From contig CAWBTV010000007.1 in assembly GCA_963791835.1 (NCBI GenBank), positions 941,807 through 1,005,806 of the forward strand: a stretch of 64,000 bases of DNA, written 5' to 3'. This stretch comes from an uncultured Chloroflexia bacterium. Its GTDB lineage: Bacteria; Chloroflexota; Ktedonobacteria; Ktedonobacterales; Ktedonobacteraceae. Of this stretch, positions 312 to 5,143 are shown one piece after another (the stretch's first letter is position 1; each line of letters begins with the position of its first letter). Made by a program: the position numbers and the translations under genes. The notes beneath the pieces are model-generated. The model did not search any database, was not told the DNA's origin, and worked only from the letters and a program-made list of their open reading frames with translations.

Positions 312-394
312 TCTCTTTGCTTTTCTGATAGAACATTATCATACCAGATTTTCAATGAAAAGGGAACGTTATGGAAAATTGCCTCTCAAAAGGC

Positions 395-425
395 TTGAGC
401 ATGACGTAACGTCATCCTTTATACT
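395..425 (+). promoter_or_regulatory. MerR-type promoter: -35 TTGAGC (395-400), 19-bp spacer containing perfect palindrome ATGACGT-A-ACGTCAT (401-415), -10 TATACT (420-425)
   Basis: The 19-bp spacer with a centred inverted repeat is the hallmark of MerR-family-controlled promoters. It is followed by AAAGGAGG and a GTG start at 448. Confidence 0.6.
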
Positions 426-447
426 CTTTACAGAAAGGAGGAACACC

Positions 448-1257
448 GTGGATCGCCGATTTTATCATACCAGCGAGTTCGCACAGAAAGCGTCTGTCTC
501 GGTACGCACGTTGCGCTACTACGACAAAGTGGGGTTGTTGTCGCCCTCGACCTATACAGAGAGTGGTTATCGGCTCTATACAGATACCGACCTGCTACGG
601 TTGCAACAAATCCTGGCCTTGAAATTTCTTGGTTTCTCGCTACAAGAGATTCAGCAATTTTTAGCGGCTGAACCACTGCTCCTACAAGAGTCGTTGGCGC
701 AACAGAAGGCCATGATGCAAGAGCGCAGAAGCCAGCTGGATACGGTTATCCAGGCTATAAGCGAGACAGAAGAGTTGTTACAGGCCAACAAACTTAACTG
801 GGAGTCTATTATACGGGTGATCCAGGTGATTCAAATGACACAAAATAACGAATGGCAAGACAAGTACTTCACGCCAGAACAACGCCAGCAGATGGAAGAC
901 TTGAGCAAGAAACATTATTCCGAAGAGCAACGACAACAGATAGCCGAGTGGGGTAAGAATTGGAGTGAGGAGGACCAACGCATTGTAAGCCAGAAATGGG
1001 ATGTCCTCTTTGCGGAGCTAAAGCGTCTCGTCTCAACTGGGCAGAACCCGGATGGGCCAGAGGCACAGGCACTCGTGTCACAATGGAAGGCTCTTGTAGG
1101 CGAGTTCACACACGGCGACTCAGGTATTCAACAAGGCTTGAACGGCATGTGGCAGGATGTTGGCAACACACCTGCCGAACAAAGGCCCTTCGCTATGCCA
1201 TATACACCGGAGGAGGGAGAATTTCTGCTCAAAGCGATGAAGATGCAGAACATCTAA
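448..1257 (+). CDS. MerR-family transcriptional regulator (N-terminal HTH, long C-terminal effector domain; possibly TipAS-like)
   Basis: HTH motif YHTSEFAQKASVSVRTLRYYDKVGLL. GTG at 448 with RBS AAAGGAGG. The ORF-track ORF 355..1257 is trimmed to the RBS-supported start. Confidence 0.75.
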   Translation: MDRRFYHTSEFAQKASVSVRTLRYYDKVGLLSPSTYTESGYRLYTDTDLLRLQQILALKFLGFSLQEIQQFLAAEPLLLQESLAQQKAMMQERRSQLDTVIQAISETEELLQANKLNWESIIRVIQVIQMTQNNEWQDKYFTPEQRQQMEDLSKKHYSEEQRQQIAEWGKNWSEEDQRIVSQKWDVLFAELKRLVSTGQNPDGPEAQALVSQWKALVGEFTHGDSGIQQGLNGMWQDVGNTPAEQRPFAMPYTPEEGEFLLKAMKMQNI

Positions 1258-3065: not shown

Positions 3066-3818
3066 ATGATACCTGCACACAAATTTCCGCTCGGCGAATA
3101 TCTCGTCGAGGGCTTGATAGATGGCTCGTTCCGCAAATATTTTGACCGCATCCATTATCGGCAATATGGGACATATACGGATGAGCAACGGGCGTTACCG
3201 ATGATTATCTGTGCCAATCATTCGACATGGTGGGATGGCTATGTGGCGTTACTGGTGGCGCGTCAACTTGGTGTTGATCCGTATTTGATGATGGAAGAAG
3301 CACAGTTGCGCCGCTATTTCTTTTTTCGCTGGATTGGCTGCTTTTCGGTAGACCGACAGAATGCACGCTCAGCTATGCAGTCTCTGCAATACGCAGCCCG
3401 TATGCTTAAAGAGAAACAAGGACGTATGGTTTGGCTCTTTCCGCAGGGCGAGATTTCACCAAATGATCGTCGTCCGTTTGAATTTTTTACGGGTGCGGCA
3501 CATCTCGCACGCCTGACCACGACGAGTCTTGTTTATCCGCTTGCGATACGCATCGAATATCTCGCCGAACAACGACCTGATCTTTTTATTAGCCTCGGCG
3601 AACCCTTATGCGTTGATGCAGAGATGGCGCATACTCCTGGTTTCCTCAAACATTGTACGCATCAGCTAGAGGGTATGGTGACAGCCGAACTCGACCAGTT
3701 ACGTAGTGACATTGTAGCAGGGGATTACTCGTCCTTCACGTTGTTGATGCGTGGCACATCTTCGACAAACAGGATATTCGACTCGCTCTTACTGCGGAAA
3801 CAGATTGGCAGGCAGTAG
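3066..3818 (+). CDS. Lysophospholipid/PlsC-family acyltransferase (CruD-like carotenoid-glycoside acyltransferase candidate)
   Basis: HX4D acyltransferase motif NHSTWWD. Strong RBS GGGTAGGGGG upstream. Context with the CrtD-like and GT2 genes. Confidence 0.7.
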   Translation: MIPAHKFPLGEYLVEGLIDGSFRKYFDRIHYRQYGTYTDEQRALPMIICANHSTWWDGYVALLVARQLGVDPYLMMEEAQLRRYFFFRWIGCFSVDRQNARSAMQSLQYAARMLKEKQGRMVWLFPQGEISPNDRRPFEFFTGAAHLARLTTTSLVYPLAIRIEYLAEQRPDLFISLGEPLCVDAEMAHTPGFLKHCTHQLEGMVTAELDQLRSDIVAGDYSSFTLLMRGTSSTNRIFDSLLLRKQIGRQ

Positions 3819-3820
3819 AG

Positions 3821-5143
3821 ATGATGAGATTGTTCATAGAAAATGCCTGTAGGGGTCTAATTCATCACACCCTGTTGGCAATGAACCATGCCGGAGAATA
3901 TGGAAAACGTTTAATCAATATCTCACAAGTTTGTTTATCGCCAATAGGGTGTAATGAATTAGACCCCTACAGATACGTTGCCGCACTCGTACTTTGTATT
4001 CTTATCATCCTATTCGCTATCCTCATCATCAACCTGTTCACGTTTTATCGTCTACGACCTCATATTGAGACACAAAACACAGAACAGCCGCTTGTCTCTG
4101 TCCTGGTGCCAGCACGGGATGAAGCGCAATCTATCGAGCGATGTGTGCGTTCGTTGGTAGCCCAAACATATGAGCGATTAGAGATACTTGTATTGGACGA
4201 TCATAGTAGTGATGCGACGGCAACAATTGTGCAGAGCATCATGGATGAATTGCCTGTACAGCAACAAGGAAGGGTACGACTGTTGCAAGGCGAGGAGTTG
4301 CCGTTGGGATGGGGTGGCAAAAACTTTGCATGTCATCAACTGGCACAACACGCGACAGGGAACTATTTGTTTTTTACGGATGCTGATACTGTTCACGACC
4401 CTAAGATGATTGCATCCGTAGTTGATTGTATGCAAATCCGTAAGGTTGCATTGCTCACAGCACAACCAACCTATGAACTTGATAGTATAGGAGAACGTCT
4501 TGTCGTACCGCTCCTCACCTTTACCATTATGACGCTGCTTCCTGTGGCCCTTATTCCTGTGCGACCGGAGCCAAGTCTTGCTACGGGTAATGGACAACTG
4601 TTGTGTTTTGAACGTTCCGCATACGAACATATTGGTGGACATTCGTCGGTGAAGAATCGCATTTTGGAAGATGTGTTACTGGCACGTGCGGTCAAGGCGG
4701 CAGGCTTGCGTATGATTTTTGTGGATGCACAAGACCTTGTGCGTTGTCGCATGTATCGCTCGTTCGCGGAGGTCTGGTCGGGCTTCTCGAAAAACCTGTT
4801 CGCGTTTTATAACTATGCGTTACCCTTCGCGCTTATCGGACTTGTGCTAAATATCCTACTTTTTATTGTGCCAGCATTGCTCATTTTATCAGCCCTATTT
4901 ATACCATTCTCGTTTCCGACATTGCTTTTGGCGACAGGTGCCTATGCGCTTCCTGTCGTGATGCGCATGTTATTAACGCTGCGCTTTACACAGACGCAAC
5001 GAGGGTTGATGCTTTTGCTGTGTCTGCTGCATCCCGTTTCGATTGCGCTTGAATGCCTGATTTTGCTCAATTCGATACGCTGGCATTATCGTAAAGAGGG
5101 AACGGTGTGGAAGGGTCGGCAATATGTGACTTATCAGAAATGA
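3821..5143 (+). CDS. Family-2 glycosyltransferase with C-terminal multi-TM domain (CruC-like); true start uncertain because a MITE occupies the 5' end
   Basis: GT2 motifs VLVPARDE...LVLDDHSSD...FTDADT. Residues about 9-50 of the ORF are encoded by MITE D1, which contains an in-frame ATG at 3881. Confidence 0.7.
   Translation: MMRLFIENACRGLIHHTLLAMNHAGEYGKRLINISQVCLSPIGCNELDPYRYVAALVLCILIILFAILIINLFTFYRLRPHIETQNTEQPLVSVLVPARDEAQSIERCVRSLVAQTYERLEILVLDDHSSDATATIVQSIMDELPVQQQGRVRLLQGEELPLGWGGKNFACHQLAQHATGNYLFFTDADTVHDPKMIASVVDCMQIRKVALLTAQPTYELDSIGERLVVPLLTFTIMTLLPVALIPVRPEPSLATGNGQLLCFERSAYEHIGGHSSVKNRILEDVLLARAVKAAGLRMIFVDAQDLVRCRMYRSFAEVWSGFSKNLFAFYNYALPFALIGLVLNILLFIVPALLILSALFIPFSFPTLLLATGAYALPVVMRMLLTLRFTQTQRGLMLLLCLLHPVSIALECLILLNSIRWHYRKEGTVWKGRQYVTYQK
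3848..3969. mobile_element. MITE-like element, family D (GTAGGGGTCTAATTC terminal inverted repeats)
   Basis: gtaggggtctaattcat...atgaattagacccctac. Related copies at 15983-16130 and a remnant at 10963-10997. Confidence 0.7.

Follow-up and report, generated by a model that had tools for sequence, protein, structure and literature searches.

A TipA-class operator in the probable autoregulated promoter of a MerR-family gene from an uncultured member of the Ktedonobacteria

We analysed a 64-kb stretch of DNA, hereafter the window, from an uncultured Ktedonobacteria-like organism. Positions 395-425 probably form a sigma-70-type promoter of a TipA-class regulator gene, with the palindrome at 401-415 as the operator of that same regulator, an explanation to which, taken as a whole, we give a probability of about 0.85. 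The features on which this reading is built, with their coordinates in the window, are as follows.

375-393, plus strand: two conserved A-tracts, AAAATTG (375-381) and CAAAAGG (387-393), 5' of the -35 hexamer in the logo of 80 promoters
395-400, plus strand: -35 hexamer TTGAGC; TTG in register at 76 of 80 loci, the consensus of relatives being TTGAC[CT]
401-415, no strand assigned: predicted operator, a perfect 7-1-7 palindrome (ATGACGT-A-ACGTCAT) with its dyad centre at A408 and a conserved core, TGACGT-W-ACGTCA, at 402-414
416-419, plus strand: CCTT between the palindrome and the -10 hexamer, as read from the sequence
420-425, plus strand: -10 hexamer TATACT, 19 bp from the -35; TAnnnT in register at 77 of 80 loci and exact TATACT at 48 of 80
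432-433, plus strand: predicted transcription start, A432 or G433, from the usual spacing of 7-8 nt after a -10
434-441, plus strand: Shine-Dalgarno sequence AAAGGAGG, 6 nt 5' of the GTG at 448; GAAAGGAGG is conserved in relatives
448-1257, plus strand: TipA-class regulator gene with a GTG start, 269 aa (open reading frame, Pfam, homologues and model)
463-669, plus strand: MerR winged helix-turn-helix (HTH), residues 6-74 (Pfam and model)
Residues 76-112 of the same gene, plus strand: long dimerisation helix of the AlphaFold model
824-837, plus strand: candidate internal start, AGGTGAT (824-830) followed by ATG (835-837, Met130), from conservation and the precedents of TipAS and AlbAS
907-1242, plus strand: Pfam match to the TipAS domain, residues 154-265 (PF07739, 3.7e-14)
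1243-1317, no strand assigned: perfect inverted repeat with 36-nt arms and a 3-nt loop, a probable bidirectional terminator

In the sequence, positions 395-450 read TTGAGC, ATGACGTAACGTCAT, CCTT, TATACT, CTTTACAG, AAAGGAGG, AACACC and GTG, which bore out every element of the initial annotation, namely the hexamers, the 19-bp spacer, the palindrome, the ribosome-binding site and the GTG. The palindrome fills the first 15 bp of the spacer, with the dyad centre, 408, at the eighth of these; a dyad operator inside a spacer of 19-20 bp is the arrangement of target promoters in the MerR family. With 19 bp between them, the hexamers are too far apart for good recognition by RNA polymerase alone. TTGAGC was found as the exact -35 hexamer in the eight closest loci. 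A transcript starting at 432 or 433 would carry a leader of about 15 nt, and in the 80-promoter logo GAAAGGAGG stands at a near-constant distance 3' of the -10 hexamer. In that logo the A-tracts at 375-381 and 387-393 reach 0.3 to 0.7 bits per position, compared with approximately 0 in adjacent positions. Their location, at about -57 to -51 and -45 to -39 from the predicted start, is the sole basis on which they may resemble an UP element.

A 7-1-7 palindrome is not significant in itself, since five perfect ones were present in the 64-kb window and 4.05 ± 1.9 were expected from Markov-1 simulations. The composite of TTGNNN-N19-TANNNT with a perfect 6-1-6 repeat in the spacer occurred once in the window, namely at 395-425, and had a mean of 0.055 in the simulations, 11 of 200 of which contained at least one. 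For comparison we gathered 80 loci by protein profile from species-representative genomes, with 47 to 91% protein identity to the window protein; they are mostly Ktedonobacteria and also include bins of Trueperaceae, Rubrobacter, Herpetosiphonaceae, Chloroflexaceae and Chthonomonadaceae. Upstream of the regulator gene, TGACGT-N-ACGTCA was perfect in 61 of these 80 loci, carried one mismatch in 16 and two mismatches in 2, and was absent from a single locus (L009). The TTG, the core and TAnnnT were all in the register of the window in 74 of the 80. A weighted logo (effective N of about 68) gave the consensus C-TTGAC[CT]-A-TGACGT-W-ACGTCA-T-CCTT-TATACT, with 1.4 to 1.9 bits at the core and at the hexamer anchors (TTG; T, A and the final T of the -10) and 0.6 to 1.4 bits at the remaining hexamer positions. 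In the same sequences the flanks held approximately 0 bits, for instance from -50 to -34 and from +18 to +24 relative to the dyad centre, and the block between them is therefore under selection as one unit. The perfect 7-1-7 repeat of the initial annotation is present at 401-415; however, only 40 of the 80 loci have a complementary seventh pair, and hence the conserved unit is the 6-1-6 repeat at 402-414.

An independent scan of metagenome contigs with the pattern TTG-N4-TGACGTNACGTCA-N5-TANNNT retrieved 120 loci of widely differing base composition. Among their 98 callable downstream ORFs, 61 were of MerR type, 38 of them also with TipAS, and many of the non-MerR ORFs were interrupted by contig ends. 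These counts confirm that the operator and the regulator gene travel together. On this comparative evidence the operator is real and strongly conserved, and it is conservation across relatives, rather than the palindrome itself, that is decisive for the site.

The gene at 448-1257 encodes a protein with the three parts of a TipA-class regulator. Its N-terminal region matched the Pfam families PF13411 MerR_1 (6e-20) and PF00376 MerR (6.9e-14), as well as PF09278 MerR-DNA-bind (9.3e-06), just above its cut-off. The AlphaFold model (pLDDT 78.5) has a winged HTH, one long helix at 76-112 and an all-helical C-terminal domain. A MerR-type HTH is indicated by Pfam, by the match to MtaN (7e-21) and by the Foldseek match to 1r8d, and the modelled N-terminal domain superposes on this DNA-bound MtaN structure with a TM score of 0.83 and 41% identity. 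PF09278 and the single modelled helix 76-112 point to a coiled coil, the dimer itself being predicted. PF07739 and a model that is helical throughout 118-267 point to a TipAS-type effector domain. The nearest solved proteins were MtaN, a MerR protein of Bacillus cereus, Listeria Lmo0526 (3qao), TipAN and SkgA, and the C-terminal part matched the albicidin-binding protein AlbA, weakly in both sequence and fold. The alpha6-alpha7 region, which is the switch in TipA-class proteins (PMC7762955), is present at residues 118-140, where the model is least confident. A Q/W-rich C-terminal ligand sensor of about 200 aa had been proposed; its composition stands, with 12.7% Q and 4.5% W, or seven tryptophans, over residues ~113-269, but this region has 157 aa, in line with a TipAS domain of about 150 aa. 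The 269 residues include no cysteine, which excludes covalent capture of thiopeptides of the thiostrepton type.

The closest database protein is 93% identical to the regulator, and homologues are mostly 268 aa long. These lengths, together with the conserved GAAAGGAGG, support the GTG at 448 as the start codon and the ribosome-binding site assigned to it in the initial annotation. A longer ORF from an ATG at 355 (300 aa) was rejected because it would read through the promoter, because homologues have mostly 268 aa and because the Shine-Dalgarno sequence precedes the GTG at 448. In annotation terms, the gain is GTG 448 as the true start instead of the upstream ATG 355 used in some database entries of relatives, and the promoter, operator, likely transcription start and transcription unit of a drug-sensor-type regulator from an uncultured Ktedonobacteria-like organism. 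Some database entries of relatives are extended at the N terminus by translation of the promoter itself. P0101 renders the operator as LEHDVTSS, indicating that its start codon was annotated too far upstream; P0026 (304 aa) and P0050 (319 aa) are presumably extended likewise. In most orthologues the start codon seems to be TTG, and in several CTG, at a distance of 5-7 nt downstream of GAAAGGAGG (for example ...GGAGGAAGCACCTGGAT), as seen in L013, L018, L019, L021, L022, L027, L031 and others. The use of non-ATG and CTG starts in this regulator gene thus seems unusually high.

The hairpin at 1243-1317 separates the regulator gene from a convergent crtI-like gene, which makes the regulator a single-gene unit, like tipA. 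The final five codons and the stop codon of each convergent gene lie within it, so that both proteins end in MQNI. Long perfect palindromes of unrelated sequence also begin at the stop codon in L003 to L007, suggesting that these hairpins evolve fast yet remain perfect. The crtI-like (phytoene desaturase-type) gene on the minus strand (1303-2992) is split into two overlapping ORFs, 2477-2992 and 1303-2526, which hold the N- and C-terminal parts of an amine-oxidase fold; the split reflects a frameshift, which would make it a pseudogene, or else a sequencing error near 2477-2526. Beyond it lie genes for an acyltransferase (3066-3818) and then a glycosyltransferase (3821-5143). Control of the crtI-like gene by the operator was considered and rejected, as the gene has no operator and the terminator stands between it and the regulator gene. 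Its synteny with the regulator gene was limited to the closest clade plus one divergent case (L076). On the other side, a minus-strand gene seems to start near 127 and to leave the left end of the window; from its sequence it may encode a LysE/RhtB-like exporter. Control of this upstream gene was likewise rejected, its strand having no operator-containing promoter. Just upstream of its ribosome-binding site there is a strong terminator-like hairpin (165-200, 14 pairs) that gave no match in Rfam and that may terminate another transcript or serve as a leader/attenuator.

We compared the window site with the 26-bp promoter probes of a 2020 structural and biochemical study (PMC7762955). The tipA probe reads TTGCAC-C-TCACGT-C-ACGTGA-GGAGGC, the mta probe TTGACC-C-TAACGT-T-GCGTGA-TTGTTT and the skgA probe TTGACC-C-TCACGC-C-ACGTCA-GACCTG (PMC7762955), and their counterpart in the window is TTGAGC-A-TGACGT-A-ACGTCA-TCCTTT. 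The window site shares its register, the ACGT-N-ACGT core and the 6-1-6 geometry with these probes, which were assayed with purified TipAL, Mta and SkgA. The order of a -35 hexamer, one base and then a 6-1-6 repeat with an ACGT-N-ACGT core, placed in the regulator's own promoter, is that of a TipA-class operator as far as sequence can tell. For AlbA, a SELEX motif, ACNCTNACG, covers the -35 end and the 19-bp spacer (preprint 10.64898/2026.09.21.753095). The window operator is compatible with this motif, and relatives with TTGACTCTGACG, such as L013, match it exactly, whereas the window flank AGCATGACG differs from it at two positions. Since the -35 hexamer TTGAGC departs from the ACNCT flank of the AlbA type, contacts beyond the palindrome may differ. 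The conserved site, the register common to tipA, mta and skgA and the fit to the AlbA motif together indicate a TipA-class autoregulated promoter. Conservation in relatives and the register of the assayed sites also support the earlier proposal that the palindrome is the operator of the adjoining MerR-family gene. Judged by its letters, the window site is a TipA-class operator in unusually perfect form.

The motif is also found in front of rmlA, rfbB, DUF2268 and other genes in metagenomes, as would be expected if the palindrome were the operator of another, unlinked transcription factor or a general promoter element, and the MerR gene merely a target. We regard this as very improbable, because the motif accompanies MerR/TipAS genes across several phyla (the 61 of 98 downstream ORFs given above), because most non-MerR targets with enough flank adjoin a MerR-type gene with a similar DNA-binding domain and because the register is that of sites assayed with purified TipAL, Mta and SkgA. 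Moreover, the motif occurs only once in the 64-kb window, which argues against a general promoter element. It is more improbable still, to the point of being negligible, that the inverted repeat works at the RNA level, as a terminator or attenuator hairpin, or arose by chance, even though a simple scan listed 401-415 as terminator-like (six pairs and a T-rich tail) and 7-1-7 palindromes are about as common in the window as expected. What the scan took for a T-rich tail is the conserved -10 hexamer, and the predicted transcription start comes only downstream of the site. No Rfam family matched the region, and a permissive-threshold Rfam search of positions 1-1400 gave only spurious microRNA matches on the long terminator hairpin. 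Every core position is conserved in base identity (1.4 to 1.9 bits) and compensatory changes are absent, which points to protein-DNA recognition and not to RNA pairing. Chance is excluded by the presence of the site in 79 of the 80 loci.

How the regulator would use its operator is less clear-cut. In the canonical MerR switch, the protein is always on its operator, represses without ligand and activates with it, and there is neither autoinhibition nor a second product. This always-bound mode is the main rival to a reading based on autoinhibition, and sequence alone cannot choose between the two. Indeed, the promoter anatomy is identical to that of the classical MerR, BmrR and CueR targets, with a dyad in a 19-bp spacer; repression followed by activation is described as the family norm in reviews and cryo-EM work (PMC9909328, PMC7722741, PMC8113463); and a perfectly palindromic operator would favour tight constitutive binding. 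However, TipAL, Mta and SkgA bind their promoters far more weakly as full-length apo proteins than as isolated N-terminal domains, and thiostrepton raises the DNA affinity of TipAL approximately 12-fold (PMC7762955). AlbA behaves similarly, by an "equilibrium-shift" mechanism, and TipAL was reported not to be a repressor (preprint 10.64898/2026.09.21.753095). Given this published behaviour of TipAL, Mta, SkgA and AlbA, we prefer ligand-released autoinhibition followed by spacer distortion for the window regulator; the textbook model of an always-bound repressor turned activator may not apply to it and seems unlikely to us, though well short of implausible.

Under the preferred mechanism of ligand-released autoinhibition, the unliganded TipAS domain probably masks the DNA-binding domains, as described for TipAL, SkgA, Mta and AlbA, and binding of a bulky hydrophobic ligand would free them. 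Any capture of the ligand would be non-covalent, as the protein has no cysteine. The regulator dimer would then bind both ACGTCA half-sites through its winged HTH domains, as is typical of the family. The bound dimer is expected to bend and undertwist the spacer so that the -35 and -10 hexamers can be recognised together, by analogy with the structures of BmrR, EcmrR, CueR and AlbA. Transcription would begin near 432 and yield a short-leader, single-gene mRNA ending at the hairpin 1243-1317, and induction would set up a positive feedback loop in which the regulator raises its own expression. More tentatively, a 140-aa ligand-binding protein started at Met130 may sequester the ligand and damp the loop, as TipAS and AlbAS do.

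Whether Met130 is in fact used as a start, which would yield a 140-aa TipAS-like product, is in our estimate close to an even bet. Among the precedents, TipAS is an in-frame product from residue 110 (PMC7762955) and AlbAS from residue 128 (preprint 10.64898/2026.09.21.753095). AGGTGAT is complementary to the 16S rRNA tail, assuming a canonical tail. In 81 sequences (the 80 loci and the window), an ATG stands at alignment column 130 in 77, and an anti-Shine-Dalgarno match of at least 6 nt lies suitably upstream in 55, compared with 2.8% of codon positions elsewhere in the same genes, all of these counts being inflated by phylogenetic non-independence. The GTG codon is used at Val124 in 0.90 and at Val127 in 0.87 of the sequences, compared with 0.44 gene-wide. 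Of the 18 codons under the strongest synonymous constraint, five fall within 121-129, and the codons that replace Gln126 usually retain a G (CGG, GAG). A subfamily at greater distance has GAGGTGAT or GGAGGTGAT ahead of this Met, which are Shine-Dalgarno-like and stronger. The confidence of the model is lowest at residues 128-134. These signals are confounded by the conservation of the peptide VIQVIQM, for which the use of common codons would by itself produce AGGTGAT in roughly 28% of sequences.

A search of the genome for the palindrome had been suggested as a way to define a regulon. Run in the 64-kb window, with up to three mismatches in the 15-mer and up to two in the 13-mer, it returned, apart from 401-415, only 42716/42717 and 32503, no more than chance would give and neither flanked by promoter hexamers. 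The search thus yielded no second site in a promoter context, and no regulon member can be named in the window. The window also contains no DUF2268 gene. Some 170 bp further upstream, another perfect site is present in Ktedonobacter racemifer, K. robiniae, Ktedonospora formicarum, Tengunoibacter and strain brp13, where it is part of a divergent promoter (TTGCAT-N19-TAGACT) of a gene for a predicted zinc protease of the DUF2268 type; the motif is thus a reusable operator. In this Ktedonobacter group the DUF2268 targets, behind an operator promoter with a 19-bp spacer, are those of L059, L060, L062 (for example at 2775-2800), L064, L070 and L073. In the metagenome contigs, the DUF2268 gene was divergent from a TipAS-type regulator gene in L110 and formed an operon with the regulator gene, which it overlapped by 8 nt, in L135; in L134, L176, L190 and L198 no regulator gene was visible on the available DNA. 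DUF2268 would thus be a recurrent and apparently undescribed regulon member; no DUF2268-MerR link was found in the literature searched.

Other genes carry the same promoter as well. In AT-rich contigs, one of which (L126) is labelled human gut metagenome, the promoter and operator precede dTDP-rhamnose genes and a UDP-GlcNAc 2-epimerase gene. The targets there were rmlA (L096, L100, L113, L121, L123, L126, L140, L149, L152, L156, L178, L182, L192, L193, L195, L199 and L200), rfbB (L084 and L167) and the epimerase gene (L133). A gene for a fusion of a MerR domain and a SAM-methyltransferase (3396-4586, 396 aa) lies just upstream in L192, a fusion gene of the same type lies just downstream of the epimerase gene in L133, and several other rmlA loci have a MerR-type match within approximately 1-2 kb. 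The operator promoter was also seen before alpha/beta-hydrolase genes (L136 and L142) and before an ABC-transporter ATPase gene in L128, with a MerR/TipA-like gene nearby; these hydrolase and ATPase genes may belong to the regulon in other lineages.

Only the DUF2268 link and the candidate internal start go beyond routine annotation here, and neither a DUF2268 link nor a short isoform was described for Chloroflexota in the literature searched. That a pan-bacterial TipA-class operator defines a small regulon with DUF2268, and that the regulator gene may in addition encode two proteins through Met130, is a tentative proposal that we consider somewhat doubtful. If it is true, DUF2268 becomes a candidate antibiotic-inactivating or detoxifying partner. 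The DUF2268 target and the candidate short isoform offer testable leads on minimal resistance modules.

Among characterised systems, TipAL/TipAS from the tipA gene of Streptomyces lividans has the same order of MerR HTH, coiled coil and TipAS domain, encoded by a single autoregulated gene. The tipA promoter likewise has a 19-bp spacer and an operator one base after the -35 with an ACGT-N-ACGT core, and the resemblance possibly extends to a second in-frame product made up of nothing but the ligand-binding domain. However, its half-site is TCACGT and not TGACGT, TipAS starts at residue 110 whereas the candidate here is at 130, and TipAS captures thiopeptides covalently via a cysteine that the window protein lacks. 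The hosts also differ, the window coming from an uncultured member of the Ktedonobacteria. Mta of Bacillus subtilis gave the best match to the DNA-binding domain (E-value, TM score and identity as above) and has its operator in the same register. Mta also activates the multidrug-efflux genes bmr and blt, of which no counterpart is visible in the 64-kb window. SkgA of Caulobacter crescentus (7cla), a full-length member of the TipA class, has a right half-site, ACGTCA, identical to that of the window, but its similarity is lower (E-value of 1e-12) and it is tied to stationary-phase katG regulation. The autoinhibited apo state of the class was defined on SkgA (PMC7762955).

AlbA/AlbAS of Klebsiella oxytoca is similar in being self-upregulating from a promoter with a 19-bp spacer and in having a short form, which starts close to the candidate site here (residue 128). 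In contrast, AlbA has two tandem TipAS-like domains in 348 aa, where the window protein has one. BmrR, EcmrR, CueR and MerR of Tn501 share the DNA-distortion logic, the spacers of 19-20 bp and the N-terminal fold, but have GyrI-like or metal-binding-loop effector parts and act as always-bound repressor/activators. The window system is therefore a fresh, uncharacterised example of a well-studied switch, and its mechanism is not new. From Actinobacteria and Firmicutes to Chloroflexota and Deinococcota, the core of the TipA-class operator is conserved both in sequence and in its place within the promoter, so that a simple pattern is enough to trace TipA-class regulons in any genome.
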